From Longimicrobiales bacterium (GTDB lineage Bacteria > Gemmatimonadota > Gemmatimonadetes > Longimicrobiales > Gaopeijiaceae), in the NCBI GenBank assembly GCA_965116905.1, contig OZ220732.1, positions 2,496,001 through 2,560,000 on the forward strand: a DNA stretch of 64,000 bases. The letters run 5' to 3'. How positions within the stretch are numbered: position 1 is the stretch's first letter; every line of letters starts with the position of its first letter. A program made the position numbers and the translations under genes. This document shows, one piece after another, positions 6,063 through 43,618 of this stretch. The notes below the pieces were generated by a model. The model ran no database searches. It was not told where the DNA came from and was given only the letters and a program-made list of their open reading frames with translations.

Positions 6063-7253
6063 ATGACCGAGTCCAGTCCTGCGCTTCCCGGAGCCAGCCA
6101 TCTCGAGTGCACCGCCACCGGCGCCATCTTCGACTCCGAGACTCTTCGTGGCCTTTCGCCCGCCGGCAAGCCCCTCTTCGCCCGCTACGATCTCGATGCG
6201 ATCCGCACCCGCTTCACCCCCGAGGCGGTCGCGCGCAGAGCCCCGACGCTCTGGCGGTATGAAGAGGTCCTGCCGGTGCGGGACCGTGCCTGCCAGATCA
6301 GCCTCGGCGAGGGCTTCACGCCGCTGCTGGAGTCGCCGCGCCTGGCGGACCGCGTGGGCGTGCGCCGCCTGTGGGTCAAGGACGAGGGACAGAACCCGAC
6401 CGGCTCGTTCAAGGATCGGGGCCTGTGCATGGCGGTCTCGCGCGCACTCGAGCTGGGCGCGCGGGAGCTAGCGATTCCGTCGGCGGGCAACGCGGCGGGG
6501 TCGGCGGCGGCGTATGGCGCGGCCGCGGGCTTGCCGGTTCACGTGGTCGTGCCCCTGGACACGCCGGTCGCGATCCTGGCCGAGATCCGCGCGCTCGGTG
6601 CCGAGCTGGACCTCCTGGACGGCCTGATCAGCGACTGCGGCAGGGTCGTGCGCGAGCGGTGCGACGAGGACGGGTGGTGGGACCTGTCCACCCTGAAGGA
6701 GCCGTACCGCGTAGAGGGAAAGAAGACAATGGGCTACGAGCTCTTCGAGCAGCTGGGCGGACGGCTGCCCGACGCGATCGTCTATCCGACGGGCGGCGGC
6801 ACCGGCCTGATCGGCATGTGGAAGGCCTTCGCCGAGATGGAGGCGCTTGGCTGGATCGGGGCCGAGAGGCCGCGGATGTTCACCGTGCAGGCGACCGGCT
6901 GCGCTCCGATGGTGCGGGCGTGGGAACAGGGCCTGGAGGACGCGGGGCTGTGGGAGGACGCGGCCACGTTCGCGGCGGGCCTGAGGGTTCCGGGGGCCGT
7001 GGGCGACTTCCTCATCCTGCGTGCGCTGCGGGAATCGGGGGGCGGGGCGGTCGCGGTCACCGACCACGCAATGGCTCAATGGGTCGAGACCATGGGCGCC
7101 GCAACGGGGATCTTCGGGGCGCCGGAGGGCGGGGCGACCGCGGCGGCGGTGCCCCGACTGCTGGAGATGGGACTGATCCGCGACAGCGACGAAGTCGTGC
7201 TCTTCAACACGGGCAGCGGGCTGAAGTACGTCGGGATGGAGCCGGTGGACTGA
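6063..7253 (+). CDS. thrC: Threonine synthase (PLP-dependent, fold type II)
   Basis: LGEGFTPL, NPTGSFKDRG (PLP lysine), EGKKTMGYE, PTGGGTG, NTGSGLKY; start taken at ATG 6063. Confidence 0.8.
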   Translation: MTESSPALPGASHLECTATGAIFDSETLRGLSPAGKPLFARYDLDAIRTRFTPEAVARRAPTLWRYEEVLPVRDRACQISLGEGFTPLLESPRLADRVGVRRLWVKDEGQNPTGSFKDRGLCMAVSRALELGARELAIPSAGNAAGSAAAYGAAAGLPVHVVVPLDTPVAILAEIRALGAELDLLDGLISDCGRVVRERCDEDGWWDLSTLKEPYRVEGKKTMGYELFEQLGGRLPDAIVYPTGGGTGLIGMWKAFAEMEALGWIGAERPRMFTVQATGCAPMVRAWEQGLEDAGLWEDAATFAAGLRVPGAVGDFLILRALRESGGGAVAVTDHAMAQWVETMGAATGIFGAPEGGATAAAVPRLLEMGLIRDSDEVVLFNTGSGLKYVGMEPVD

Positions 7254-7264
7254 CCGGGCTCCGG

Positions 7265-7807
7265 TCAGTTCGACTGCCGCCTGCGGTAGCTGAATTCCGG
7301 CAGCGGGACCAGACCCGTGCGAAGCGGGGGGACCAGTTCCGCGGTCGGGCGTTTGACGGCCAGCGCGCGGTTGAGGTGAAGCGTGAAGGCGGCGTTGTGC
7401 CGGGATCCGAAGTCCCAGCCCACCCCCACGGGAAGCCGCGCGACCAGTCCGGCTCCGGTGCCGCCCTCCTCCCGCGCGACAATTCCCCACAGGCCGAAGC
7501 CCACGAACGGCTCCACCGAACGGGACCCCAGGTACTGCTTGGCCGTCACCGACACGCTGAGGTCCCGGAGCCGCCAGGTGCCCACCTGGACCTCCACACC
7601 CTGGTGATCCCAGCGGTATTCGCCGACGAGCGCGGCCATGCTGGCGCCGAACACGGACACGCCGAATCGGTACTGGGCGGAAAGCGGGGCGGCGCCGGCG
7701 ACGGCCAGGAGGCAGGACAGCGACAGCGCGGGGAGGATTCGCCGCCGCGCACCCTCGGCACCGGGTCGGACCGGCCGGTTGCGAGGGCGGGGGGGCGATG
7801 GGATCAT
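7265..7807 (-). CDS. Hypothetical secreted protein, possibly a small outer-membrane beta-barrel
   Basis: Signal peptide ending APLSA-Q, then amphipathic beta-strands (QYRFGVSVFG, PFVGFGLWG, LPVGVGWDF). Confidence 0.6.
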   Translation of the reverse strand: MIPSPPRPRNRPVRPGAEGARRRILPALSLSCLLAVAGAAPLSAQYRFGVSVFGASMAALVGEYRWDHQGVEVQVGTWRLRDLSVSVTAKQYLGSRSVEPFVGFGLWGIVAREEGGTGAGLVARLPVGVGWDFGSRHNAAFTLHLNRALAVKRPTAELVPPLRTGLVPLPEFSYRRRQSN

Positions 7808-7857
7808 GATGGGCGAGTATAACGTGGCCGATTCCGGGCTTCCAGGTTGATGCATCG

Positions 7858-8820
7858 ATGACGTCTCGCACGCGTGGGTCATTGCCCCGCCAGGGGTGGC
7901 AGACCCTGTCGGCACCGCTGGTGGGCCTGTTGGCGTTGCTGTTGGGCCTGTCGGCGGCGTGTGCCGGTGCGGACGATGGCGCCGTGCCGGCACCTCCGCT
8001 CCCGGAGACTGCGCTGACCCGCTATGCGCCCGACTCGTTGCGCGTCGTCCCTCTGAGCCAGGGCGTCCACTATCGCTACCTCTGGTCGCCGGCCGGGCCG
8101 TGGGCGATCCACCTGGTCTCGGCCGACCTCGACCGCTGTCAGCTGGACCTGAGGGTGGTTCCGGCGCTGGCCGCGGACGGAGCCACCCGGACTCGGAAGG
8201 CCGTCTCGGATATGCGGCCATCGGCCGATGCGGATGTACAGGTGCTCGCCGGGGTCAACGGGGACTTCTTCGCCGCGGACGGGACTCCGGTGGGACCTGA
8301 GGTCACCCGCTCGACCCGGCGTGTCTCGGAACGGCCTGCGCTTGCGTGGGGACGGGACCGGGTGCTTCGGATCGGGCCGGGCGACACGGAGGTGGACACT
8401 GCCGGCGTGACCGCACAGGTCATCGGGGGCTTTCCCGAGCTCCTGGACGGTGGAACCCCGGTGGGGGATCTGGGGATTGCCGAACGTCCCTCTTTCGCCG
8501 CCGCGCGGCACCCGCGCACCGCGGCCGGCCTGGACGTTCAGAGCGGGGTGCTGTGGATCGTCGTCGTCGACGGGCGGCAGATGCCGTATTCCGACGGGAT
8601 GTCCCTTCCGGAACTGACCGAGCTCTTCCTGTCCCTCGGAGTGGATGAAGCGCTGAACCTCGACGGTGGCGGCTCGTCCGCGATGTCCGCGGGCGGACGC
8701 ATCGTCAACCGGCCATCGGATACGGACGGAGAGCGCGCGGTAGCGAACAGCCTGTGGCTCGTGCTCGACGAGGCCGGGTGTCAGCGGCCCTTGTCCCAGG
8801 CAAGCGAAAGCCCCAGGTAG
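7858..8820 (+). CDS. Phosphodiester glycosidase family (NAGPA/DUF2233) lipoprotein
   Basis: GVNGDFF, HPRTAAG, VDGRQ, ALNLDGGGSSAM, RAVANSL; lipobox-like LSAAC. Confidence 0.9.
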   Translation: MTSRTRGSLPRQGWQTLSAPLVGLLALLLGLSAACAGADDGAVPAPPLPETALTRYAPDSLRVVPLSQGVHYRYLWSPAGPWAIHLVSADLDRCQLDLRVVPALAADGATRTRKAVSDMRPSADADVQVLAGVNGDFFAADGTPVGPEVTRSTRRVSERPALAWGRDRVLRIGPGDTEVDTAGVTAQVIGGFPELLDGGTPVGDLGIAERPSFAAARHPRTAAGLDVQSGVLWIVVVDGRQMPYSDGMSLPELTELFLSLGVDEALNLDGGGSSAMSAGGRIVNRPSDTDGERAVANSLWLVLDEAGCQRPLSQASESPR

Positions 8821-28223: not shown

Positions 28224-28595
28224 ATGACGACACCTGACCGCGATCCGGGGCTGGACACGCTGCTCCACCTTCACGGCGAGACGCTTTTCGTGGACGATGC
28301 GGGCCACTGGGTGAAGTTCGTCGTGGTGCAGACCGAGGTGACGCCGGAACGGCCACACGGCCTTCGCTACTCGCTGACGCTGCACGCGCCGGATGGCGCC
28401 AGGCTGGTCGGATTCGACAACGCGCACCCGGTGAGGGAGCGTCGAGGCCCAGGCGGCGGGCAACGAGTGAAGCGCGACCACCGGCATCGCTTGCGGACAA
28501 TCCGGCCCTACGAATACGAAAACGCGGCCAAGCTGCTCGCGGACTTCTGGGAGGAAGTCGACCACGTGCTTCGAGAGAGAGGATCGATTCCATGA
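28224..28595 (+). CDS. DUF6516 / TumE-like toxin
   Basis: RPHGLRYSLTLH.PDGARLVGFDNAH, DHRH, PYEY.NAAKLLADFW. Confidence 0.8.
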   Translation: MTTPDRDPGLDTLLHLHGETLFVDDAGHWVKFVVVQTEVTPERPHGLRYSLTLHAPDGARLVGFDNAHPVRERRGPGGGQRVKRDHRHRLRTIRPYEYENAAKLLADFWEEVDHVLRERGSIP

Positions 28596-28987
28596 AGACA
28601 CTGAAGATCGGTATCGCCGACTACGACCAGATGAAGGCGCGCACCATGGCCATTGCCCGTGGCGAGCACACGCCTGCGAGTGGTGAGCCCAAGGTCTGGT
28701 TCACGTCCATCGAGAGCTTCGCAAGGCTGCTTTCTGAGCATAACAGGCATCTCCTGGAACTGATTGCCCGCGAGCGGCCGCGGTCGCTGACGGAGCTTGC
28801 GGAACTGGCCGGGCGCAGCAAGTCCAATCTCTCGCGAACCCTGAAGACGATGTCGCAATACGGACTCGTCGAATTGCGGCGAGGCGTGCGCGGCAGGCTG
28901 GTGCCGCGGGTGCCCTACGACCAGGTGAGGCTCGATGTCTCGTTGACGGGGACGAGCAGTAGTGGGTCGGTCGGTGTCAGCCCGTGA
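28592..28987 (+). CDS. HTH antitoxin (TumA / HVO_A0114-like)
   Basis: VWFTSIESFARLLS.NR.LL, SLTELAELAGRSKSNLSRTLK; ATGA overlap with the toxin. Confidence 0.8.
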   Translation: MKTLKIGIADYDQMKARTMAIARGEHTPASGEPKVWFTSIESFARLLSEHNRHLLELIARERPRSLTELAELAGRSKSNLSRTLKTMSQYGLVELRRGVRGRLVPRVPYDQVRLDVSLTGTSSSGSVGVSP

Positions 28988-29864: not shown

Positions 29865-30600
29865 TCAACCCCCAATCACCCCCAGCATCTCCCCCCGAAT
29901 CCGCCGCCAGTCCCGACCCAGGTCCACCGTCCGCGCCTGAATACGGAACCCCTCGAGCCACACCTCGGCCCTCAGCGGCTCGTCGCCCACCTGCGGATAC
30001 AGCAGGATGCCCTCGTGCCGTGCCCCGTCCGGCTGGGTGGCCTGGCGGTTCCGCAGGTACGCGAGCAGTTGGCGGCGTTCGGGTGACTCGAGGATGACGT
30101 CCGCTTCCATGACGGGGATCCGTGCGCGATTGGCGGCGTCCGTGGCGTCGGTGCCCGCCCAGTCGATCCGGCGGCGGCCTCCCGGATTCACCCGGTAGAG
30201 GCGCTGCTCGCGCTCGTAGAATCCCGTGACGAAGTCCTCGAAGAGCCTCCACATGGTGGCCTCGTCGCGTCGGAAGTCGCGGAAGGCGGTGTGGCCGGTC
30301 TTCTCGTCGACCATCGAGTTCCGGTGGAGGAGCCGGCACACCGAGAGCAGGTGGTGATAGACCCGGCGCTGGCCTCCGAGCTGGACCCGGGTGAAGGTGT
30401 TCCGCTTCAGCCGGACGCGCGACACGCCGTCGAGCCTGCGGTAGGCGGAGCGCACCTCGCCGCGGATGGATCGGTCGAGTGGGATCCGTGGGCTAGCAGG
30501 CTGCCCAGCGATGTGCGAAGGATGCGATTGGGCAGGATGTCCACCGACAGCTCCTCGAAGTCGCACGCGGCCCGGGCGCGTGACTGGCACCGCAAGTTGA
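29865..30600 (-). pseudogene. mcrC: Decayed mcrC
   Basis: Aligns to the intact McrC (CDFEELSVDILPNRILR, LFEDFVTGFYERE, MEADVIL, EGILLYP, TVDLGRDW) but is 5'-truncated, frameshifted near 30490 and lacks the D-x-K segment near 30071. Confidence 0.85.
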
Positions 30601-30790
30601 GCGATGCGAGGCACGCGTGGCAGGCCGACACCGACACGCTGATTCTGCTGGTCGCGGCCGGATTCCTGCTCTACCTTGTGAGACCACAGTCAGTGTGGTG
30701 GGGGTGGATTGGGGACGACATGACGTGGTCAGAACCGTGTGTCCACTCATGGGCACGGCACCGTAGCAACAAGGTCACAGAAAGCAATCA

Positions 30791-33034
30791 ATGCCCAAAC
30801 CATCCGCCGACCACCCCGCACTTCGCGCGGCCCGCCTTTGGCGCGATAGCTGCCTCTTGAACGAAGGATCCGTTTTCACCGAAAAGTCGCTCTGGACCTC
30901 GGACAATGTCGGATACCTAGTGCGCTACTACGTACAGAACCTGGACGATGGCGAGGGCGGGTTCTTCCAGAAGCTGGAGAGCCAATTGTCTAGGGCTCCC
31001 GCAAGCGCGAAGCAACTGGCGGCGGAGATGTTCTGGGTGATGTACCTGTTCTGTTCACCGGGATCAATGCAGCCCGGTACGAAGCGCCGCCAGATTCGCC
31101 AGGTCTGGGAATGGTCGGGCGAGCCACTTCCGGACGCCCCGTTTGAACTTGGGGAGGCACTTCAAGACGGCGTCGCCAACCCCGGCATGGCCTTCAATCA
31201 GCTTCGATGGAAGGAGTTTCTCTTTTTCATCGTCGCGATGAAGGCATGGACGGTGTCGTCAAGGCCGCAACGCGAGGCTCGGCTTGCAGACCCGTGGAGT
31301 CTCGCGGAGTGGCTGAAGGACCAGGACGAGACACGCACCCGTCAGCTGCGACACATGCTGTTGTACCTGCTCTTCCCAGATCACTTCGAGCCGTACGCTA
31401 CGGCGTTGCACAAAAGGACCATCGTGCGTGCGTTCACGAAGAAGTTCGGGGAAGATCCGGACCAAGTAGACTACAAAGACAGAATCGCCATTGACCGACA
31501 GCTTCTTGTCGTCCGCGAGAGGCTCCGAGCGGAAGGTGCAGCAGAGGATTTCGGTTTCCACGACGAGCCGTATCTGAAGGTTTGGCAGCCTGATACCGGA
31601 AAAGATGGCAGCGACGACGATCTTCCGACTCCCGAAAAGTCCGGTCGATGGTACCAGGAGAAGTTCGGGGAGGCTCGGGTGTGGGCGTTCGCGCCGGGTG
31701 CGGGTGCGCGGTACTGGGATGAATTCCAGGAGAAGGGGCTCATCGCCATTGGATGGGACCAACTGGGGGATCTTCGAGAGTTTGAAAGCAGGGAGGACAT
31801 CCACGAAGAACTCCGTGACATCCTCGACAAGCCGAATCCGCACAACGACTCGCTCGCATGCTATCAGTTTGCTCACGAGATGCGGCGCGGTGATTATGTG
31901 CTCGTCAAGCAAGGGCGCACGTTGCTGTTGGGCTATGGGGTCATCGAATCCGGCTATGAGTTTGACGAGAGCCGTCCCGAATTCCGACACACGCGGGCCG
32001 TGAAGTGGGAGAAGGCGGGTCGTTGGCGGTTCTCGAAGGAGCGTGCCATCACCACCAAGACCCTCACCGACTTCAGTCGCTACAAGCAGTGGCTTCATTT
32101 CGCCTTCCAACTCATGGAGGAGGGAGCGGACCCACCCCCGCCCCCCCCACCGGGCGACGAGCCCTACACTCGTGAAGCCGCTCTGAACGATCTCTTCCTC
32201 CCTGGAGCAGAGTTCGACCGTATCATCGACGCCCTGGAAAGGAAGAAGAACGTCGTCCTCGAAGGCCCTCCCGGTGTCGGCAAGACCTTCATAGCCAAGC
32301 GGCTGGCCTACCGGGTCATCGGATACAAGGCTCCCGAGAGGGTGCGGATGATCCAGTTCCACCAGAGCTACGCGTACGAGGATTTCATCCAGGGGTACCG
32401 GCCGACTGACGATGGGGGATTCGAGCTGCGCGACGGAGTGTTCCATACGTTCTGCCGGGAGGCGGCGGCGAATCCCAAAGACCGGTACGTCTTCATCATC
32501 GACGAGGTCAACCGCGGGAATCTCAGCAAGATCTTCGGTGAGCTGATGATGCTCATCGAGGCCGACAAACGGGGTGCCGAATACGCCGTTCCGCTGACGT
32601 ATTCGCCCGGTTCGGAGCCGTTCCACGTTCCCCCGAACCTCTACCTAATCGGGATGATGAACACGGCCGACCGGTCATTGGCGATGGTGGACTACGCGCT
32701 ACGTCGGCGGTTCGCGTTCATCCGCCTTCAGCCTGCTTTCGCGACCGACCAATTCAGCGATTTCCTCAACGCGGCAGAAGTGGAGGAGAATCTCGTCAAC
32801 AAAATCGTCGACCGGCTGTCGGCTCTGAACGAACGAATCCGTGCGGATCGTAAGAACCTCGGGCCGGGCTTCGAGATCGGACACAGCTTCTTCTGCCCGG
32901 GCGACGACGACGAGGGACTCGATGATTCCTGGTACGAGGCGATCGTCCGGCGTGAGATCGAGCCTCTGCTGCGGGAATACTGGTTCGACCGTCCCGAGCA
33001 CGTGGAGGAGCAAATCCGAGTACTACTGGCGTGA
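30791..33034 (+). CDS. mcrB: McrB family AAA+ GTPase with two N-terminal domains
   Basis: GPPGVGKT, QFHQSYAYEDFIQG, IDEVNRGN, MNTADRS, DYALRRRF, IGHSFF. Confidence 0.93.
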   Translation: MPKPSADHPALRAARLWRDSCLLNEGSVFTEKSLWTSDNVGYLVRYYVQNLDDGEGGFFQKLESQLSRAPASAKQLAAEMFWVMYLFCSPGSMQPGTKRRQIRQVWEWSGEPLPDAPFELGEALQDGVANPGMAFNQLRWKEFLFFIVAMKAWTVSSRPQREARLADPWSLAEWLKDQDETRTRQLRHMLLYLLFPDHFEPYATALHKRTIVRAFTKKFGEDPDQVDYKDRIAIDRQLLVVRERLRAEGAAEDFGFHDEPYLKVWQPDTGKDGSDDDLPTPEKSGRWYQEKFGEARVWAFAPGAGARYWDEFQEKGLIAIGWDQLGDLREFESREDIHEELRDILDKPNPHNDSLACYQFAHEMRRGDYVLVKQGRTLLLGYGVIESGYEFDESRPEFRHTRAVKWEKAGRWRFSKERAITTKTLTDFSRYKQWLHFAFQLMEEGADPPPPPPPGDEPYTREAALNDLFLPGAEFDRIIDALERKKNVVLEGPPGVGKTFIAKRLAYRVIGYKAPERVRMIQFHQSYAYEDFIQGYRPTDDGGFELRDGVFHTFCREAAANPKDRYVFIIDEVNRGNLSKIFGELMMLIEADKRGAEYAVPLTYSPGSEPFHVPPNLYLIGMMNTADRSLAMVDYALRRRFAFIRLQPAFATDQFSDFLNAAEVEENLVNKIVDRLSALNERIRADRKNLGPGFEIGHSFFCPGDDDEGLDDSWYEAIVRREIEPLLREYWFDRPEHVEEQIRVLLA

Positions 33035-34092
33035 AGATTCCGGTCAGGAACATCTACTATCTCCTCTGCTACGCTTGGGACCACGTGAGGGAAGGGGAGA
33101 CGGTCGATGTCGAGTCCGAGCAGTTTGGGGGGCTGGTCGACCTGTTCGCCAAGGTGTTGAACGAGGGCGCGTCGCGGCTCGTTTCGCGCGGCCTCGATCG
33201 TGACTACCTCGTCGTCCACGAGGATGTCCGGGGCCTCAAGGGAAAGCTCGATTTCGCGACCACGATCAAGAGGAACCTGCTCCTGAACGGCAAGACGCAC
33301 TGCGCCTTCGACGAACTTAGCCATGACGTGCCGCAGAACCAGATCCTCAGAGCGACGCTGCGCGGGCTGGCCTTGGTGCCCGCCCTCGACCCGGCCCTGA
33401 GACGGCATACCGAGCGCCTCTACCGGAAGCTGGACGCCGTCTCCGATGTCCCTCTGACCACGAGTCTGTTCCGCACCGTCCGCGTCCACCGGAACAACCG
33501 GTTCTACAGCTTCCTCCTGCACCTCTGCCGCATCATCCACGAGAATCTCCTGGTGAATCAGGAGCAGGGGACGGCGGAGTTCAACGACTTCCGCGAGGAC
33601 GAACACCAGATGGGGCTCCTCTTCCAGGAGTTCGTGAGGACCTTCTGTGAGCGCGAGACAGACTACAAGGTGAGCGCCCCGAAGATCGACTGGTTCGGTG
33701 CGGAGGCGAGCGAGACCGATCTGCGCCACCTGCCCCGCATGCAGACGGACATCGTGCTGCGGTCGCCGACGCGCACGATCATCGTGGACACCAAGTTCTA
33801 CAAGAACCCGCTGGACACGCGGTGGGAGGGCGAGCGGGTGAACGCGGGGAACCTGTACCAGGTCTTCTCCTATGTGACGAACTGGACAGCGAGGGCAGAG
33901 GCGGGCGAGCCCGAACCGGAAGGGTGGTTGCTGTATGCGGCGGTGGACGGCGGATTCGACTACCGGTTCGAGTTGATGGAGCGGCCGGTGCGGGTGTGCT
34001 CGGTGGATCTGGGGCAGAAGTGGAGGGGGATTGAGCGGGACTTGAGGGAGTTGGTGGGAAGCGCGGCGCCGATGCCGCTTCATCAGGTGTAG
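33031..34092 (+). CDS. mcrC: McrC family PD-(D/E)xK nuclease
   Basis: IPVRNIYYLLCYAW, LFQEFV, MQTDIVL...VDTKFY, NLYQVFSY; GTGA overlap with mcrB. Confidence 0.93.
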   Translation: MKIPVRNIYYLLCYAWDHVREGETVDVESEQFGGLVDLFAKVLNEGASRLVSRGLDRDYLVVHEDVRGLKGKLDFATTIKRNLLLNGKTHCAFDELSHDVPQNQILRATLRGLALVPALDPALRRHTERLYRKLDAVSDVPLTTSLFRTVRVHRNNRFYSFLLHLCRIIHENLLVNQEQGTAEFNDFREDEHQMGLLFQEFVRTFCERETDYKVSAPKIDWFGAEASETDLRHLPRMQTDIVLRSPTRTIIVDTKFYKNPLDTRWEGERVNAGNLYQVFSYVTNWTARAEAGEPEPEGWLLYAAVDGGFDYRFELMERPVRVCSVDLGQKWRGIERDLRELVGSAAPMPLHQV

Positions 34093-34198: not shown

Positions 34199-35101
34199 TC
34201 ACCCCTTGAATACATGCTCCCGATGATACTCTAGAAACCGCCGATGTGGCCGGTAGGTTTCTTGCTCCGGTAGCCGCAACTGCCCGTTCGGGTTCACCAG
34301 CGACAGTACGTTGCCGGGGATCGCGTTCCTCTTGAAGAGCAGGGTGTAGTCGTCGTCGACTGAGATCAGGCCGCGGTCGAACATCCAGTGAAAGGTGGAG
34401 CTCAGCGCGACGCCATTCCGGAGGCTGTCCGGTCCGTTGGCGTGCACGGGCCGGATGTGCGCGGCTTGGGCCTCGGCGCGCCCGCCGCCGTTGATGATCC
34501 GAAGACCGCTGATCGCGCAGGTGTTGTCGTAGGCCCGCTTGATCCCCGTGGCGAACACCCGGTCGCGAAAAGGTCGTCGTGAGAGTCGCTCGATGATGGG
34601 CCGGTCCGTCAGCTCCAGCCCACCGGGATCGGTGTGAATCCCTTCGCGGATACCGAATCGTTCGCGCCGGGCGGTCGCGGTCTCGAACCCGGCCGCCAGG
34701 ATCAGACTGTACTCGGCATCTGGCAGGAGCCGGACCGAACGCCCGAAAGCGCCCTTGTTCACCGAACCGTCTTCCTTCTGGAGTCCGCTCTCGTAAAAGA
34801 AGCCGTCCTCGCGGAAGGGCACTGGACGGTCGAATTCCAGATAGTCCGCGACATAGGCGTAGTAGTGATCGGTTCTCAGCGGATCGGCATCGATGCTCAC
34901 GATCCGGGCCGTCGCGAAATAAGACTGACGCCCTCCGCTACTGGAAAGGTGGGAGCTGGAGCGGCGAGGCTCGTAGTAGACGATCCAGTTGCCGACCGCG
35001 GCCCGCGCCGCGTTCAGGTAGGTGCGCGGGAAGTGGTATCGCTCCTCGGGAAGGTCGTCGTAGGACGGGTCAACTTTGGTGGTCAGGACGGCTTTGGGCA
35101 T
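34199..35101 (-). CDS. HNH endonuclease with putative PUA/EVE-like N-terminal reader
   Basis: RDRVF...AYDNTCAISG, EAQAAHIRPV..GPDSLRNGVALSSTFHWMFDRGLI; N-domain YDD.PEERYHFP, WIVYYE, YFATARI. Confidence 0.85.
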   Translation of the reverse strand: MPKAVLTTKVDPSYDDLPEERYHFPRTYLNAARAAVGNWIVYYEPRRSSSHLSSSGGRQSYFATARIVSIDADPLRTDHYYAYVADYLEFDRPVPFREDGFFYESGLQKEDGSVNKGAFGRSVRLLPDAEYSLILAAGFETATARRERFGIREGIHTDPGGLELTDRPIIERLSRRPFRDRVFATGIKRAYDNTCAISGLRIINGGGRAEAQAAHIRPVHANGPDSLRNGVALSSTFHWMFDRGLISVDDDYTLLFKRNAIPGNVLSLVNPNGQLRLPEQETYRPHRRFLEYHREHVFKG

Positions 35102-35108
35102 GGGTGGT

Positions 35109-35633
35109 TCAATACCCCCACGGGACCGGAATGCCCGGCTCCACCGGGCCGACCAGGTCGTCTGCGATGTCGGTCTCGACCAGGTTCCGGCAGATCCAGA
35201 TCCGGCACTTGGGAGAGTCGGTGCCGTTGCCCGGTTGAAAGACGAAGATCGCGAGTGCGCCGGTGTTTTCGGGATCGCGCAGCGGGGATGAGGTGCCGAG
35301 ATTGGTGATGCGTATCTGGGCCTGTGGTCTGCCCAAGAGGCCGTCGCCGATGTGCGGAACGCCCCGGACGCGGTGCTCCTGGACTCCGTGAGAGTCGATC
35401 TCGATGTCGAATTCGACGGTGGACGTTCCGCCATCCTCATCTAGCGACGAGAACGCGGGTTTGAGGAGGTCTCTCGGAACGCAGGGGCCAGGCTGCCGCG
35501 TTTGGGTGGCCGAGGTCTCGGTGCCGGAGAGGAACTTGGCGTGCCAGATCCAGCTGGCCCCGATCCAACGCGCGATCCAGTCCCTGAGTCGGTCGGTTTC
35601 GATCGGGCTGTATTGGTGGGGTGTTGTTTCCAT
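35109..35633 (-). CDS. Stand-alone EcoRII N-terminal effector-binding (B3-like) domain
   Basis: KFLSGTETSAT, IDSH, RIT..G..SPLRDPENTGALAIFVF, IWICR..E.DI.....GPVEPG parallel the EcoRII-N sequence as recalled; no catalytic domain follows. Confidence 0.75.
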   Translation of the reverse strand: METTPHQYSPIETDRLRDWIARWIGASWIWHAKFLSGTETSATQTRQPGPCVPRDLLKPAFSSLDEDGGTSTVEFDIEIDSHGVQEHRVRGVPHIGDGLLGRPQAQIRITNLGTSSPLRDPENTGALAIFVFQPGNGTDSPKCRIWICRNLVETDIADDLVGPVEPGIPVPWGY

Positions 35634-35814
35634 TGCGAGGCCTCCCGGGTCGGCTCTGCGTTAACCTGGTGTCGGTCGACGGGAGCGCAACAGTGTCCGG
35701 GTATCCAACTGTCGTTCGGCAGCCGAGATGTGGGAGCGGCCACCCGTGGGACGATTGTTGGTGCTTGGTGGAACTGCCATTTGACCTAACCGTGACGCCA
35801 GCCCAGGATTACGC

Positions 35815-36762
35815 ATGAGATATGATGATCCTGGAACGGCCGCCAGTGGGACCATCTTCGACCGGCGGTACGACGCGCAGGTTCGGACCGCGACCTTCGA
35901 ATGGCTGAATAGCCGGCGGTCTGAGCTGGGAGATGTCTTGCCCCGTACCGTGCTCGCGCGGGGCTTCGAGTTCCGGGGGAAGAGAATCTATGTCATAGGC
36001 CCGCAGGGGATCTTCAAGCCTGCTGCGCTACGAATCCCCTTGTCAATTACGACAAGCCCCAAGGGGCCCTACCGGGATGAATTCGGCCCGGATGGTTTCC
36101 TCCGATACCGATACCGAGAGACGGGCCCTGACCATCGTGACAACGTTGGCTTGCGAGAGGCGATGCTGAATGCCTTGCCGCTGGTGTACTTCCATGGCAT
36201 TCTCCCCGGGAGATATGTGGCGGTCTGGCCAGTGTTTGTGGTTGCAGATTCGCGGAGCGGACGAGCTTTCTCCATCGCGGTGGACGACCCGGCTCATTTG
36301 GGCCTCTCCGGCGGGGTCGGAGAGGGGGCTCGGGTACGGCGCGAGTACGTGACGGTGCAGACGCGTCGCCGGCTTCACCAACAGGCCTTCCGTGAGCGGG
36401 TTTTGAGAGCTTATCAGCACCAATGCACGCTTTGCCAGCTCCGGCGTGACGAATTGCTCGACGCGGCCCATATCGTCCCGGATTCCGAGCCGGAGGGAGT
36501 GGCTAGCGTGAACAACGGTCTGGCACTATGCCGGTTGCACCACGCTGCCTTTGACCGGTTCTTCGTAGGCGTACGACCAAACTATGTCATCGAGGTTCGC
36601 CAGGACGTGATGGCTGAGCGTGATGGTCCGACTCTGCGACACGCGATCCAAGGACTGAATGGGCGCCGCATCGTCCTGCCCAGGCGGAAGGTCAACTACC
36701 CGGATCCCGAGGCGCTGTCGAAGCGCTATGAGCGGTTTCGGGAGAAGGCGAGGGCCTCGTAG
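35815..36762 (+). CDS. HNH endonuclease with putative SRA-like N-terminal domain
   Basis: RRLHQQAFRERVLRAYQHQCTLC, LLDAAHI, NGLALCRLHHAAFD; N-domain PYRD..GFLRYRY..DNVGLREA..PLVYF. Confidence 0.85.
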   Translation: MRYDDPGTAASGTIFDRRYDAQVRTATFEWLNSRRSELGDVLPRTVLARGFEFRGKRIYVIGPQGIFKPAALRIPLSITTSPKGPYRDEFGPDGFLRYRYRETGPDHRDNVGLREAMLNALPLVYFHGILPGRYVAVWPVFVVADSRSGRAFSIAVDDPAHLGLSGGVGEGARVRREYVTVQTRRRLHQQAFRERVLRAYQHQCTLCQLRRDELLDAAHIVPDSEPEGVASVNNGLALCRLHHAAFDRFFVGVRPNYVIEVRQDVMAERDGPTLRHAIQGLNGRRIVLPRRKVNYPDPEALSKRYERFREKARAS

Positions 36763-36912: not shown

Positions 36913-38412
36913 CTAATCGTCGTCCGGCGCCTCATAATCATAGAGCCCCGTCGGCCCTCGCGACCCGCGTGGCAACGGCGCTATGTCCTCCGGGAGGATG
37001 GGATCCGGTATCTCTATGGCGGGATTCGACAATCCAAGGGCAGGCAGCAGGAAGACAATGTCGGTGTCAGTCGGCGGCACCGACGATGATCCCCTCGCTC
37101 CGAGTTGCTTCGCGGTGGATCCAATCGATGTGGAAGTCCCCGGAACAAGCAAGTCGACATAGCGCCCGAAGTGCGGCCGCGGGTGCTGCCCGAATCGGCG
37201 GCGGAAACCGTCAAGTTGCGATCCACCCCCGACCAGAATCACACGAACATCTTTCCAGCGGTCGGTGTTCTTCTCCTTCTTGTAGGCGTCACCGAAGCTC
37301 GCGCTGTATGCGTCGAAACTGCGTGCAGCCACCTCGTCCGCGGCCTGGTCCAAGTCACTTGGATCGAGGGGCCGGCACCCCTCGCCCATGCGCACTTGTC
37401 GGTCAGCATGTAGCTCGGGCTTTGCCTCCCGAACCACCGGAAACAGAAGAGCCCTGTCGGTGTCCGACACCGCCAAGATGTCGAGTAGTCTATCGTCGAT
37501 ATCGTCGCACCCGACAAGAGCAGTCTTGGCTGAAAAGAAGAAGACGCAGTCTTCTTCCTCGGAACGGCGCAATTTGAACCACCCCAGGTCCGTCGTTCCC
37601 GCGCCGATGTCCACGATCGCGGTGTATCTTCGACTGTTGGGTACAGTGGACGCTAAAGCCGCCTCGCCCCCCTTAACGACTGCCGACGATTCGGGGACGA
37701 GCTCCCACCGCTTGTGCTCCCGGTCTGGCGAGCCGGTGCTTTCCCTGTTGAGGATTTCAATCCAGCGGTGCCAGAGAGCAGGATAGTCGTCTAGTTGCAG
37801 GTCGTCCGTCTCTGCGAAGTCCACGGCGGCGTCGAGAGCCGTCTGGTATCCGCGCTGGATTGGACCACCGTCCAGCTGCGACACCGGGATATCGAGATTG
37901 TATCGGAACTCGGAATTCGCGCCGTACTCTTCCATCGCCAACTCGCGGACTTGACCGAGGACCGCACTGAGATACACAGCGACAAGAAAGTGAGGATGTG
38001 TGCCGAGCGCCTGGGGAACCGGAGGCACTTCGGATGCGGCCAGGTGGCGCGGGTTCCCGTTGGTGGTAATCAGTGTTCGCTTGAGCGAGCGAAACACGGT
38101 GTCCGTGTCATGCTTCTCTGCCTCCACACCGAAGAGAAAACGAGAGTCGGTGAGGGCGATGGTAGACGGGAAGCTGAACCGTGAGAAGCCGGGCCGATCG
38201 GTGCCGAAATCAACGGCCCACGCCGGACGGCCCTTATCCAGCGAGCGGACGACCACTTTCGTCCCCGAGGTCCCGAAGTCGAGACCGATGAAGACGAACG
38301 CCACCGGCGCTACGGTCGCAGGAGGAGTCGCTTCCCCCTCGATCGAAGCGTGGGCAGTGCCACGCGGACGCCCGATGCGGAAGAGGCGGAGTAAGGAGCG
38401 CAGCCAGCTCAT
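36913..38412 (-). CDS. Actin/Hsp70-fold (ASKHA) ATPase, nucleotide-binding domain only
   Basis: Phosphate-1 IGLDFGTSGTKV, connect VPESSAVV, phosphate-2 VDIGAGTTDL, adenosine ILVGGGSQL; no room for a DnaK substrate domain. Confidence 0.8.
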   Translation of the reverse strand: MSWLRSLLRLFRIGRPRGTAHASIEGEATPPATVAPVAFVFIGLDFGTSGTKVVVRSLDKGRPAWAVDFGTDRPGFSRFSFPSTIALTDSRFLFGVEAEKHDTDTVFRSLKRTLITTNGNPRHLAASEVPPVPQALGTHPHFLVAVYLSAVLGQVRELAMEEYGANSEFRYNLDIPVSQLDGGPIQRGYQTALDAAVDFAETDDLQLDDYPALWHRWIEILNRESTGSPDREHKRWELVPESSAVVKGGEAALASTVPNSRRYTAIVDIGAGTTDLGWFKLRRSEEEDCVFFFSAKTALVGCDDIDDRLLDILAVSDTDRALLFPVVREAKPELHADRQVRMGEGCRPLDPSDLDQAADEVAARSFDAYSASFGDAYKKEKNTDRWKDVRVILVGGGSQLDGFRRRFGQHPRPHFGRYVDLLVPGTSTSIGSTAKQLGARGSSSVPPTDTDIVFLLPALGLSNPAIEIPDPILPEDIAPLPRGSRGPTGLYDYEAPDDD

Positions 38413-41400
38413 CCTGACCCTCCAATCTGAACCACCCCAGCACCTACGAGTTGAGGTTCCATGCTGATTCTCCTGTCTCCCTCGAGTTCACTTCGACGAG
38501 CCTCATACTCCTGCTTCATGTTTCGAATCTGACCGCGGTAGAGGCGAATAATCCTCCGATCCCGCCCCGTCGATTCCGCTTTCGCAAGCCGCTCCTGAAC
38601 CCTCCGCCGGTGGGTACGGTACCGTTTCTCAAGACTGGCGAGGCGCGTCTGTACGATCGCGTGGTTACGGTCTTCGGCGCGCTGCCGAATACCCGCAACG
38701 CGATCCTCAAACGCGTCGTAGCCATGTTCCAGCGCATCGTCGAGACTCCGTGAATCCGAAGGCTCCCGGCGGCCGGTCGTTCGTCCGTCTCGAATAAGCT
38801 CCCCAAGAAGCAGTGAGCAGGCCCTTTCGTCCGGCACCGAGAATCCGTCAGAGCGGGACGACAGCCCAACGAAGATGGCGTCCAGTCGCTTGCGCTCGGC
38901 TCCCGCCTCGATGCGTACGGCGAACAATAGAAAGAGATATGCACCGGCAGCGGCGATCTGTGATTGGTGGAGTCGGAGCCGCGATACCGAGTGGAGTTGG
39001 TCACGGTTGTCGCGATAATACTGAACCGCCAACTGTACCACGGGATGGTGGGCGGCGAGAAACTCAGTATCGGGATGGTCGAAGGCGACTTGGGAATCGA
39101 ACGTAACCGGAACACGTCTGGACAGCGATTTCTGAAGGAATCGCTGCCGTGCAGCGCTGGGCGGCAACTGCCGCGTGGCCATGTCGAACTCGTGGCTAAC
39201 ACGAAGGGTACGTACACCCTTGCGCCGAGCGGAGCCCAGTTCTACTTGAGGGTGTGCCCGTTCCAGGAAGCCCAATACGAAGGCCTCGCGATCGGACGCA
39301 CCGAGAAGTTCACCGCCACGCATGATCCGGTTCAACTGGTCCTCGAAGTAGCCGTCTCCGCTGACAAGTCTGTCGGCTTCAGCCTCCAGCTTCTCGAGTT
39401 CGCGGCGCCGGTTTTCGATTGCGCGAGCGCTTTGTTCGATTCGTTTGCTCTCTTCCTCGGGCGTAAGACGGCTTGAAAGCAGCTGCCGTGTGAGGCGTCC
39501 GATCTCTTCGCCGACAATAGCCTCAAGATCGCCAAGTGTTCGCTCAAAGATGCCGATCCGGCGGTAGAGGCGATTGAGGACCCGATCCTCGATCGTGTCT
39601 TCGAGAGTAAAGTTAAAGATCAGGATTCGATCAGACTCCTGGCCTAGGCGGTCGACACGTCCGATCCTCTGTTCGACTCGCATCGGGTTCCAGGGCAGGT
39701 CATAGTTGATAATGATGTGGCAGAACTGAAAATCGAGGCCCTCACTGCCCACTTCGGAGGAGAGCAGGAGCCGGACATCCGGATCCTCACGGAATCGTCT
39801 CATCCGCTTTCCACGGTCGTCGCGGTCTGGGCGGCGAGGATCACTCTTGATGCCGCCGTGAATCAACTCACACGGTATTCCGTCCCGGTCTAGGCGATCC
39901 TTCAGGTAGTGCAGGGTGGCCTTGTAGTAGGCAAAAAGAATAATCTTCCTGCCAGGTTCCTCGTCATCGAGGCGCACGAGTATGCGGAGAAGCTGATCGT
40001 ATTTCGTGTCTGTATCTCCTAGGCCACGCGCGGCGTCTACCACCCTTTGACTAATCTTGATTGCAACGGATTTGGGAATCTCTTCAAGGTCGTGGACCTC
40101 GGCGTCAACCTCGTCTTCGAGCTTCCATGTCGCCCGTCCTATGAACCGGTCCCGGGCTGCCGGCATGCAGGATGCCGCTTGCCGCTGCGCTGCCATTATT
40201 GCGAAATATTTGATCGCTCCTGTGTCGTTGGGTGCGTTGTCGCGGACGAATTCTGTTACAGCATCGTAGAATTCACCCTCCGCTGGAGTCAGCGCAACAG
40301 AGACAACGCTCGGGGTTCGCATGGTTGCGTCGGCGAAGACGTCGCGTTTCTTTGTGCGGGAAAAGACATGGCTGAGAAGACTCAACTCCTCCAGATCGTG
40401 CTGCAGGTCCGCAGCCCATGCGTGTCCGCTGTCGTTGACGAACTCGGGAGGCTTGTCCAGTTCCCGCTGGACTCGCTCGTAGATCGGATTACCACCGAAG
40501 AAGCTCAGTCGCCCCCCCATCCCGAGCCTCTCGATGCGGTTCCGAATCTCATCGATGGGTGGTGGGATGGCGCGGGCCAGGCGCTGTGCCTCCACGACCG
40601 GTTCATTCGCGCGAAGACGGTCCTCGAAGATCTCGAAGTCATCGAACTCGGAGTCATCGAGTAGCCGGAAGAGGTTGAACAGGTTCTCCTCGCCGAGCTG
40701 GATGGGTGTGGCTGTTAGAAGGAGCACAGCGTGAGCGTTCTGGGCCAGAGCCCGAATGGTCCGGTGGCTCAGGGTCTGCCGATTGCGAAGATGGTGGGCC
40801 TCGTCGACGATCAGAAGGTCGAGTGGAGGAGGGGTCACATTCATGAGGTCAAGGTGGGCCTCATTGCGTACGGCCTGGAGCGAGATGATGTCCCGCGCCT
40901 CGCTGAGGTCCCCCTGTTGGGCTAGTCGCTGAAGCTGTTCCCTGAACTCCGGTGCCCCGATGATGCTGAATTCCTCGTCGAACCTATGCCACATCTCCTC
41001 GCGCCACTTCAAGCACAGCGCCGCAGGGCATACGATGAGCACGCGCCGCAGGGCTCGACGAGCCCGTTGCTCGATCAGCACCAAGCCTGCTTCGATCGTC
41101 TTACCCAAGCCCACTTCGTCGGCAATGAGAAGGCGCTGGTCGGGAGAGTCAAGGAACTTGAGGAGAGGCTTGTACTGGTGCGGATAGAAGGCAGTGCGCG
41201 ACCCCTGCAAGGAGTACAAGGTGTTGTCGAGTGGTGTGTCAAGCTTGTGGAAGGTGACAAGGCGTAGGAAGTCGTCCTTGTCACCAAAAGCGCCCCTGAG
41301 GAGGAGTTGGTCTGGTGATACGTCGGCCTTGAACCGAGTGAGATCCGCTTCGTGCACGACGATCAATCCGCCGGCGTGGAGCCGGATGCGATACCAGTAG

Positions 41401-41513
41401 GCACCGTTGCGCAGCTTAGGCGCGCGTATGACCTCTCCCACCTTGGAGCGGTCGCTCCGTAGCTGAACGCGATCGTCCGTTTCGAAGATGGGTCGTGGGA
41501 TTAGCGAGTCCAT
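38409..41513 (-). CDS. SNF2-family ATPase/helicase (RapA/DrmD-like)
   Basis: LIADEVGLGKTIE, VDEAHHLRN, LTATPIQ, EGLDFQ, NYDLPWNPMRVEQRIGRVDRLGQ; C-terminal coiled coil. Confidence 0.93.
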   Translation of the reverse strand: MDSLIPRPIFETDDRVQLRSDRSKVGEVIRAPKLRNGAYWYRIRLHAGGLIVVHEADLTRFKADVSPDQLLLRGAFGDKDDFLRLVTFHKLDTPLDNTLYSLQGSRTAFYPHQYKPLLKFLDSPDQRLLIADEVGLGKTIEAGLVLIEQRARRALRRVLIVCPAALCLKWREEMWHRFDEEFSIIGAPEFREQLQRLAQQGDLSEARDIISLQAVRNEAHLDLMNVTPPPLDLLIVDEAHHLRNRQTLSHRTIRALAQNAHAVLLLTATPIQLGEENLFNLFRLLDDSEFDDFEIFEDRLRANEPVVEAQRLARAIPPPIDEIRNRIERLGMGGRLSFFGGNPIYERVQRELDKPPEFVNDSGHAWAADLQHDLEELSLLSHVFSRTKKRDVFADATMRTPSVVSVALTPAEGEFYDAVTEFVRDNAPNDTGAIKYFAIMAAQRQAASCMPAARDRFIGRATWKLEDEVDAEVHDLEEIPKSVAIKISQRVVDAARGLGDTDTKYDQLLRILVRLDDEEPGRKIILFAYYKATLHYLKDRLDRDGIPCELIHGGIKSDPRRPDRDDRGKRMRRFREDPDVRLLLSSEVGSEGLDFQFCHIIINYDLPWNPMRVEQRIGRVDRLGQESDRILIFNFTLEDTIEDRVLNRLYRRIGIFERTLGDLEAIVGEEIGRLTRQLLSSRLTPEEESKRIEQSARAIENRRRELEKLEAEADRLVSGDGYFEDQLNRIMRGGELLGASDREAFVLGFLERAHPQVELGSARRKGVRTLRVSHEFDMATRQLPPSAARQRFLQKSLSRRVPVTFDSQVAFDHPDTEFLAAHHPVVQLAVQYYRDNRDQLHSVSRLRLHQSQIAAAGAYLFLLFAVRIEAGAERKRLDAIFVGLSSRSDGFSVPDERACSLLLGELIRDGRTTGRREPSDSRSLDDALEHGYDAFEDRVAGIRQRAEDRNHAIVQTRLASLEKRYRTHRRRVQERLAKAESTGRDRRIIRLYRGQIRNMKQEYEARRSELEGDRRISMEPQLVGAGVVQIGGSG

Positions 41514-41552
41514 ATGCAATTGCAGGGCGGGTTCGTCAATGTGGATGAACGT

Positions 41553-42688: not shown

Positions 42689-43618
42689 TCACCCCCGAAA
42701 CACCTCCACCCTGTGCCACGCCACCATCCCCCGATCCGGCGCGTCCTTCGCCCTCACCGGCGCCCGAATCGCCCTCCCCCTCAACCCCACCAACCGCCTA
42801 GCAGCCCGACTCCTCCCTCGCACCCCGCCAGACACCAGAATCCGAAACCCACCCCCCTTCCCCTCCAGCCCCATCGCCCCAAGGTCCAGCGCCTTGTGAT
42901 GCACGGAGCACAGCGCCAAGCCGTTGGGAACCACGTCCCGCCCATCGTGAGAATGCCACCGGATGTGCGCGGCCTCCAGCCCTAGCAAGCGGTCGCCAAA
43001 GCGGATGTCGTACTCGCACACGGCGCATCGTTCGTCGTACGCCTCAAGGACCGCCCTGCGGAAACGGGGATCCCGCGGCGTGTACTCCCTGACCTTCCTG
43101 CCCCTTCTGGGCATGGGTTCGTCGAGTCCGTCGGAGGAAGGCCCCGCCGCCAGTCGCACGGCGTCCAGGATGTCCTGATGGATCGATAGCGGAAAGTGTT
43201 CGGACAGGATCTGGTGCGCAGCGCGCGACACGAGTTCCGGGTGGTGCCACAGCAGGTCGTGGACATCCTGCCGGAATCCGCCCGTGATCCCGAGGCGCCT
43301 TGCTTCGCTGACGCGGATGTCTGCCGCCCGTCCCGTGGACAGTTGTGATTCCTCTGGTATCTCCCACAGGCGATCGTCGTTTCGCAATCTGCCAAACGGG
43401 TAGTGGACGCGGGGCGGCGTATCCGGTCGCCCGAACTCCTCCCACAGGGCCTTGAACCGCTCGTCCGCGGTCTCATATGGGATCAGCCGACCCTCCGGCC
43501 CCAAGCCGACACGGCCGAGCGCCAACAGCAGCATCAGCGGCTTGTGAGGTGCCCGACCGCCATGGCTTCGATCGATCCTGACGCCAGCCAACCGCGCAAG
43601 GAATTGTTCGGGAGTCAC
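42689..43618 (-). CDS. SBD-HNH, putative phosphorothioate-dependent restriction endonuclease
   Basis: RAPHKPLMLLLAL, YPFGRLRND..WE (sulfur-binding-domain pattern); RDPRFR..AYDERCAVC, LEAAHI, NGLALCSVHHKALD. Confidence 0.85.
   Translation of the reverse strand: MTPEQFLARLAGVRIDRSHGGRAPHKPLMLLLALGRVGLGPEGRLIPYETADERFKALWEEFGRPDTPPRVHYPFGRLRNDDRLWEIPEESQLSTGRAADIRVSEARRLGITGGFRQDVHDLLWHHPELVSRAAHQILSEHFPLSIHQDILDAVRLAAGPSSDGLDEPMPRRGRKVREYTPRDPRFRRAVLEAYDERCAVCEYDIRFGDRLLGLEAAHIRWHSHDGRDVVPNGLALCSVHHKALDLGAMGLEGKGGGFRILVSGGVRGRSRAARRLVGLRGRAIRAPVRAKDAPDRGMVAWHRVEVFRG

Follow-up and report, generated by a model that had tools for sequence, protein, structure and literature searches.

The analysed window, a stretch of 64,000 nucleotides of contig OZ220732.1 from a Longimicrobiales bacterium, contains a defence island in which McrBC is accompanied by three HNH genes and a DrmD-like helicase. 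Within this island, a minus-strand gene (35109..35633) encodes a stand-alone EcoRII-N (B3-fold) protein of 174 aa, assigned by profile, predicted fold and residue comparison. It is followed on the same strand by a gene for a 300-aa protein, for which profile and fold matches indicate an EVE/PUA-like reader (about residues 1–138) and an HNH nuclease (34199..35101). An McrB/McrC pair, identified by profile matches, is convergent to these genes (30791..34092, plus strand), while a second HNH gene is divergent (35815..36762, plus strand) and has a predicted promoter (35781–35809) that in the source genome also holds a CCAGG.

Several other genes of the window were recorded. A minus-strand HNH protein (42689–43618) scores over the cut-off for the phosphorothioated-DNA-binding restriction endonuclease NF045808, and at 36913–41519 (minus strand) the DrmD-like SNF2 helicase is followed by a 499-aa ORF without Pfam or NCBIfam match, which by eye has the look of an Hsp70/actin-type ATPase; a weak match to PADLOC PDC-M61B was also obtained there. 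At 29865–30614 (minus strand) there is a remnant resembling a second McrC, by eye close to the McrC of L007, a locus described below, and at 28224–28987 (plus strand) a TumE-like gene and its HVO_A0114 HTH partner form a probable toxin-antitoxin pair. The database names of homologues point to Gemmatimonadota, some to Candidatus Palauibacter, and one sequencing run with a third of the words is labelled as sponge metagenome.

A preliminary description of this DNA had called the 174-aa ORF EcoRII-N-like, and the Pfam search that it proposed agrees: the EcoRII-N profile covers residues 28–172 (E 3.7e-25, over cut-off). The predicted model finds its best structural matches in the EcoRII structures 1NA6 (Foldseek E 1e-9) and 3HQF (TM 0.73), which places the protein among the EcoRII-N/B3 pseudobarrels. 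Its likeness to the N-terminal effector domain of EcoRII (PF09217; 1NA6, 3HQF; described in the available text of PMC2770665) comprises the profile, the fold, the first strand, helix H2, the core and the C-terminal acidic helix, and equivalents of R98, R81 and T100 are present; unlike EcoRII, the protein is free-standing, without an EcoRII-C or cognate methylase being found in the genome, and has a predicted CCAGG promoter of its own. EcoRII-C was not found in the source genome (97% complete) using a profile that detects this domain in 12 of 53 genus genomes. Four C5 methylases are present, none of them Dcm-like: on PRK10458 three reach 27–39 bits and one gives no match, against 386 for the genus EcoRII methylase. 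The earlier statement that there is neither an EcoRII catalytic domain nor a Dcm-like methylase agrees with these results, and with neither of them found the 174-aa gene does not qualify as part of a type IIE EcoRII restriction-modification system. The source genome shows barely any under-representation of CCWGG (0.95–0.96), in contrast to CTAG, which is strongly under-represented at 0.28 of expectation. Controller (C) proteins are HTH proteins that bind paired C-boxes upstream of their own gene; this identity was rejected for the 174-aa protein, which has the B3 fold and gave no HTH match, and whose promoter contains only a single pseudo-palindromic ACCAGGT.

The neighbouring HNH protein's N-terminal domain matches EVE/YTH/PUA folds, including those of THYN1 and VcaM4I, and its HNH part matches TagI weakly (pLDDT mostly 80–90 for the N-domain, 64.6 for the whole model). 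A PUA-superfamily reader combined with an HNH domain is the arrangement of the EVE/PUA-HNH type IV class, whose members often cut modified DNA (PMC6765204, in the text available), and the neighbour is a probable modification-dependent endonuclease. Its sequence identity to such enzymes as VcaM4I and TagI is low, and the available text on them (PMC6765204) mentions no accessory gene. EcoRII-N and EVE-HNH are likely co-transcribed; a contig from an RNA run spans their junction, which cannot show transcription. A complex prediction for the two proteins scored 0.00 and was counted neither for nor against an interaction.

The junction itself (35102..35119, minus strand) comprises a G5 run (35115–35119) formed by a Trp-Gly codon pair, the stop codon and a 7-bp spacer before the HNH start codon, and its sequence reads exactly as first quoted. 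The proposal attached to it was that the two ORFs are one G away from fusing. This is true on the sequence, but there is nothing special about the G-run: in the source genome no stop codon interrupts the HNH reading frame over the 113 codons that precede its start, so that a one-base loss anywhere in this stretch would fuse both ORFs. Among 20 distinct 3′ junctions of the EcoRII-N gene the HNH start comes next in 13, with gaps of 7 bp (nine junctions), −19 (two), 124 and 127, and in contigs of relatives the gaps are 5 and 6 bp. G5 is present in two of these 13 junctions and the codon before the stop varies, whereas the +1 register is common to 11 of them, a recurrence that we read as descent. 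Contigs matching the source strain exactly cross the G-run without a difference or a shortened run, although contigs drop rare alleles. Fused homologues were sought in three protein sets and no intact fusion was found: only five of 570 longer candidates gave a match, four of them being full EcoRII enzymes and the fifth a chimera (P0003) that passes from a partial EcoRII-N into the beginning of an HNH-like sequence and stops after 13 residues of it; no EcoRII-N was seen in the best 120 of 5,982 HNH homologues (228–329 aa); and the profiles of both HNH-protein domains matched 0 of 261 EcoRII-N proteins. The near-fusion of the two ORFs is incidental, and the junction is not a switch.

The EcoRII-N gene belongs to a stand-alone family, to which 114 of 165 candidates of 95–305 aa could be assigned, mostly 171–187 aa in length and 51–90% identical to the 174-aa query, the query itself aside. 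Within the 53 genus genomes, 13 carry an intact stand-alone copy (69–83% identity to the query) and six carry fragments only; a full EcoRII (44–49% identity) is found in six, three of which also carry fragments, and one genome has a separate stand-alone EcoRII-N of 37% identity. The gene is under purifying selection, with a dN/dS of 0.32 (bootstrap 0.25–0.40; 17 sequences, two of them near-duplicates) compared with lower values for the HNH (0.20) and for full EcoRII (0.14). It also stands without any HNH, and in three other genomes McrBC directly follows it; constraint is 0.30 for the seven copies adjoining an HNH and 0.29 for the six copies without one. At L007 an McrB variant (6726–8021) without any Pfam match in its first 130 residues comes next, separated from the stand-alone gene by 200 nt and with a conserved element of its own. 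Frameshifted-looking database proteins exist among the EcoRII-N homologues, and a FastTree analysis of core columns placed degenerate stand-alones at several positions, in a tree that is unrooted and modestly supported.

No homologue was found in IMG/VR with the 174-aa protein, in annotated phages with one distant stand-alone, in PHROGs with seven proteins, or in the BFVD structural search (best E 6e-3). Plasmid matches, in the best 60 and best 30 of about 2,500, were all full-length EcoRII-type. In the ESM Atlas there are clusters of EcoRII-N proteins of 142–174 aa, one with phage members, with recognition scores below the reliable level, and these are leads only. The literature searched, with poor coverage of subscription papers, contained no description of a stand-alone EcoRII-N. 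The EcoRII-N/B3 domain is likewise reused in defence loci in Menshen NsnA (PMC12065111, in the text available), in EcoRII-N–NOV_C fusions and in the N-domain of LlaJI.R1; these are fusions, unlike the free-standing gene, and the NOV_C fusions keep 5–6 of the seven base-reading residues discussed below. The latter proteins (P0269, P0332 and P0337; the Pfam check covers two) have EcoRII-N joined to NOV_C/DUF3883 instead of EcoRII-C. In three genomes (L101/L102, L111 and L112) a distant stand-alone EcoRII-N lies back-to-back with a NOV_C gene, the copy at L112 appearing frameshifted near its start. The stand-alone EcoRII-N gene is real and conserved, and is built from known parts.

Base reading by EcoRII-N has been ascribed to N28, H36, Q37, Y85, R94, E96 and R98 (PMC2770665, available text). 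The 174-aa protein keeps two of these seven (Q37 and R98), its N28, H36, Y41, Y85, R94 and E96 equivalents being replaced, and four family members that were scored keep two or three. The recognition segments are altered as had been suspected, and the EcoRII segments quoted for that comparison agree with the PDB sequence. All 57 full-length EcoRII enzymes keep 5–7 of the seven, whereas 20 of 41 scorable short homologues (43 in total, two dropped for coverage) keep four or fewer; the other 21 look like ordinary truncations. None of 50 family members retains the N28, Y41 or Y85 equivalent, while 6% retain H36 and 12% Q37; H36 has mostly given way to Arg, both in the family and in a distant stand-alone lineage. 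Other reader positions vary within the family (position 104: R 48, Q 40, L 8%; 106: E 62, Q 34%; 51: C 54, R 36%), and in some distant stand-alones base readers have given way to acidic residues or glycine. In 90–100% of the family the K23, R81, R98 and T100 equivalents are present (either K or R at 23), which leaves room for persisting DNA binding. The 20 degenerate short proteins retain 81% at 18 other positions conserved in the full-length enzymes, compared with 30% at reader positions, a figure that is circular since these proteins were chosen by their lost readers; some of them may be broken genes. Overall, the 174-aa protein likely no longer reads CCWGG.

Conservation in the family is region-specific. 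Residues 28–43, which form the first strand and helix H2, have the lowest dN (0.059), while constraint on the C-arm is relaxed (dN 0.253). A 2009 study by Szczepek reportedly found the first strand and helix H2 to be essential for EcoRII autoinhibition, and EcoRII-N to inhibit EcoRII-C in trans. Yet this strand belongs to the core of the fold too, and the segment has a low dS as well (0.175), so that the conservation of residues 28–43 may have a cause other than an interface. Of the earlier interpretation, repurposing is what the family supports: EcoRII-N stands alone with changed recognition arms, in most cases beside this HNH.

Upstream of the gene, homology between family loci starts at about TTGCGC, and conservation points to a promoter (35663..35690, minus strand) with a −35 element TTGCGC (35690–35685), a 16-nt spacer and a −10 element CAGGTT (35668–35663). 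The pattern TTGCGC-N16-CAGGTT is found in 18 of 19 upstream regions, the remaining one being 5′-truncated, and the spacer itself is fairly conserved (9–18 of 18 per position). Over the predicted −10 lies a CCAGG, an EcoRII/Dcm site (35665..35669, minus strand) with its inner C at −12, about 30 bp beyond the coordinates covered by the preliminary description, in which it was overlooked. This site is present in 17 of 18 family loci, one intact locus having CCAGA. The distant stand-alone lineage, three genomes of one family to which a Thermoanaerobaculia record led by way of its phylum, carries TTGACA-N17-CAGGAT with variable spacers and CCAGG in the same register at all three loci, and an A at −14, flanking the CCAGG, occurs in 21 of 21 loci across both lineages. 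No such promoter was found at L038, another distant stand-alone, or within 330 nt of any of 14 full-length EcoRII genes, operon-internal genes of which need not have it.

Among 105 crude promoter candidates from the source genome, a CCAGG in register is seen in one. CCWGG is found 20,364 times in this genome; CACCAGGTT, a longer word, has only 60 occurrences with both strands counted. Its intergenic DNA is enriched for TTG-N3-N17/18-TANNNT (74 and 63 occurrences versus 12–30 for other spacings), and a scan with the E. coli consensus calls no promoter at the predicted site. At the promoter of the divergent HNH all three orthologues have C at −12, and CCAGG is found only in that of the source genome (one of three). 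Where EVE-HNH copies have their own predicted TTGAG-type promoter, a CCTGG stands just before the −10, over the extended −10, in five of six cases; at L050, L051, L052, L056 and L057 this CCTGG is about 77 nt upstream of the HNH start, and the sixth, L054, has CCCCG. The conserved CCAGG in the predicted promoter of the stand-alone EcoRII-N gene is a new feature.

A comparable arrangement is that of PcaRCII, a methylation-dependent HNH with a CCTGG over the extended −10 of its promoter; Dcm-type methylation of this site silences it (PMC8989522, in the text available). Both are solitary HNH enzymes in conflict with a Dcm-like methylase, and in both CCWGG overlaps the −10 region, here of a predicted promoter. 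Unlike PcaRCII, the present locus has an EVE/PUA-like reader, its site falls inside the −10 (inner C at −12), the EcoRII-N gene leads the unit, and silencing is predicted only; coexistence with the silencing methylase is seen in 0 of 13 genomes with an intact copy. On the simplest view the switch is alike, and CCWGG methylation would probably turn the predicted promoter off. Activation, through 5mC at −12 mimicking T, was ranked below repression because C at −12 occurs without CCWGG and because the tested precedent is repression.

Within the genus the gene and EcoRII show a weak pattern of mutual exclusion. Of the 53 genomes, 12 carry EcoRII-C and 11 a Dcm-like methylase, and neither is found in any of the 13 with an intact stand-alone copy (Fisher 0.026 and 0.047, respectively, uncorrected for kinship and from incomplete genomes). 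Four of the six fragment-only genomes have EcoRII-C, and the three distant-lineage genomes yielded neither EcoRII-C nor a Dcm-like match. The exclusion pattern could equally be explained by type IV incompatibility alone. A Dcm-like methylase is found in one of 17 genomes with an intact HNH (G225) compared with 10 of the 36 others (Fisher 0.08), which is at most an indirect sign of modification-dependent cleavage by the HNH. At L072, L074, L073 and L080–L083, EcoRII-C occurs without an EcoRII-N match there, in genomes with a Dcm-like methylase (the Pfam check covers two).

Our best reading of these data, offered tentatively, is that of a methylation-silenced cassette whose first gene would encode a DNA-blind trans-inhibitor of EcoRII-type nucleases. 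As long as CCWGG is unmethylated the cassette would be on, and both EVE-HNH and the inhibitor would be made; EVE-HNH would cut methylated DNA, and the inhibitor would neutralise an EcoRII-type enzyme that enters a naive cell or remains after loss of an EcoRII system. In the presence of an EcoRII- or Dcm-type methylase the site would become methylated and the cassette silenced, so that the chromosome would be spared from EVE-HNH. Expression would be confined to the unmethylated CCWGG state, in which an EcoRII-type nuclease is dangerous. Having lost CCWGG reading, the inhibitor would not respond to the effector DNA by which the native domain is released, and the retention of the inhibitory elements together with the loss of the releasing readers fits an antidote. 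The stand-alone family, its selection, the replaced readers, the conserved CCAGG and the absence from genomes with EcoRII-C or Dcm-like methylase speak for this reading. Against it, a silenced cassette should be able to exist beside the methylase, whereas no intact copy is found with one; the conservation of residues 28–43 may be structural, and the kept K23, R81, R98 and T100 may allow DNA binding. The C at −12 without CCWGG at the divergent promoter, the fairly conserved spacer, the lack of a consensus-scan call, the CCAGA locus, L038 and the absence of homologues from the phage collections searched also count against it.

The main rival reading keeps the protein on its DNA. A methylation-sensitive autorepressor, with a retuned B3 domain bound to ACCAGG over its own −10, would hold the cassette down until an incoming CCWGG methylase evicts it; EVE-HNH would then be induced, the cell would die and the invading system would be blocked. 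We consider this unlikely, though it has several observations in its favour: the EcoRII-N gene takes the leader position, the target site of its parent domain lies in its own promoter in two lineages, the A at −14 is invariant, the R98, R81, T100 and K23 equivalents are kept while H36 has mostly become Arg in both lineages, B3 domains are transcription factors in plants, and the longer word is rare in the genome. On the other side, a 5-bp binder would be titrated by the many CCWGG sites of the genome; variable reader positions (104, 106, 51) and a relaxed C-arm are unlike a protein that reads one fixed site, and in G914, with its convergent downstream gene, there is little to repress.

The remaining explanations, all raised in the preliminary description, fare worse. 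If the protein served the modification-dependent nuclease next to it as an accessory subunit, for regulation or specificity, this would account for the HNH start following directly in 13 of 20 junctions and for the co-occurrence of intact EcoRII-N and intact HNH in eight genomes (Fisher 0.016, uncorrected), and the fusion of EcoRII-N to a NOV_C nuclease domain in other proteins and the divergent NOV_C gene in three of three distant-lineage genomes point the same way. However, the partners differ (EVE-HNH, McrBC, NOV_C or none), the NOV_C domains of the fusions are not close to those of the neighbouring genes (E 0.16), constraint is unchanged without an HNH, nine of 17 genomes with an intact HNH have no intact EcoRII-N copy, and the HNH family has 5,982 matches against 114 for the stand-alone family, all of which makes a subunit dedicated to the HNH quite improbable. 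Equally improbable is a decaying R.EcoRII relic, kept for its promoter and for translational coupling to the HNH. Its weaker constraint relative to the HNH and full EcoRII, the fragments in six genus genomes and the frameshifted-looking database proteins would suit such a relic, but the dN/dS interval of 0.25–0.40 with region-specific constraint speaks against neutral decay, the family is closer to itself (69–83%) than to the genus's own EcoRII (44–49%), and the gene is intact where no HNH follows. A slippage- or frameshift-switchable EcoRII-N/EVE/HNH fusion is the least probable of all, hardly worth entertaining: the shared +1 register and the reading of P0003 into HNH-like residues are outweighed by the lack of an intact fusion in the three protein sets, the scarcity of G5, the varying last codon, a register that is not fixed, the gaps of −19, 124, 127, 5 and 6 bp, and the unchanged G-run in contigs of the strain, which may hide rare alleles.

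Returning to the antidote reading, a known counterpart is Dcm, a solitary antidote to EcoRII post-segregational killing (PMC3874152, in the text available). The same nuclease would be countered, but Dcm masks the DNA by methylation and so conflicts with type IV enzymes, which the proposed protein inhibitor would not. It is possible, with more reserve than for the locus itself, that such genes form a widespread class in defence islands: an autoinhibitory domain cut loose and made DNA-blind, under a promoter sensing the methylation mark of the enzyme it came from, which would act as a host protein antidote to EcoRII-type addiction modules and toggle between type II and type IV restriction, possibly with more than one origin.

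Stand-alone EcoRII-N genes are easily dismissed as truncations; here they are under selection, recurrent in distant lineages and tied to a CCWGG in their predicted promoter. Should the autorepressor reading hold instead, the family would represent a bacterial B3 transcription factor that senses methylation. If the antidote reading is true, the gene would encode a chromosomal anti-restriction protein made from the very enzyme that it inhibits, and cells carrying a methyl-cutting nuclease would be able to resist an addictive restriction-modification system without methylating their own DNA.
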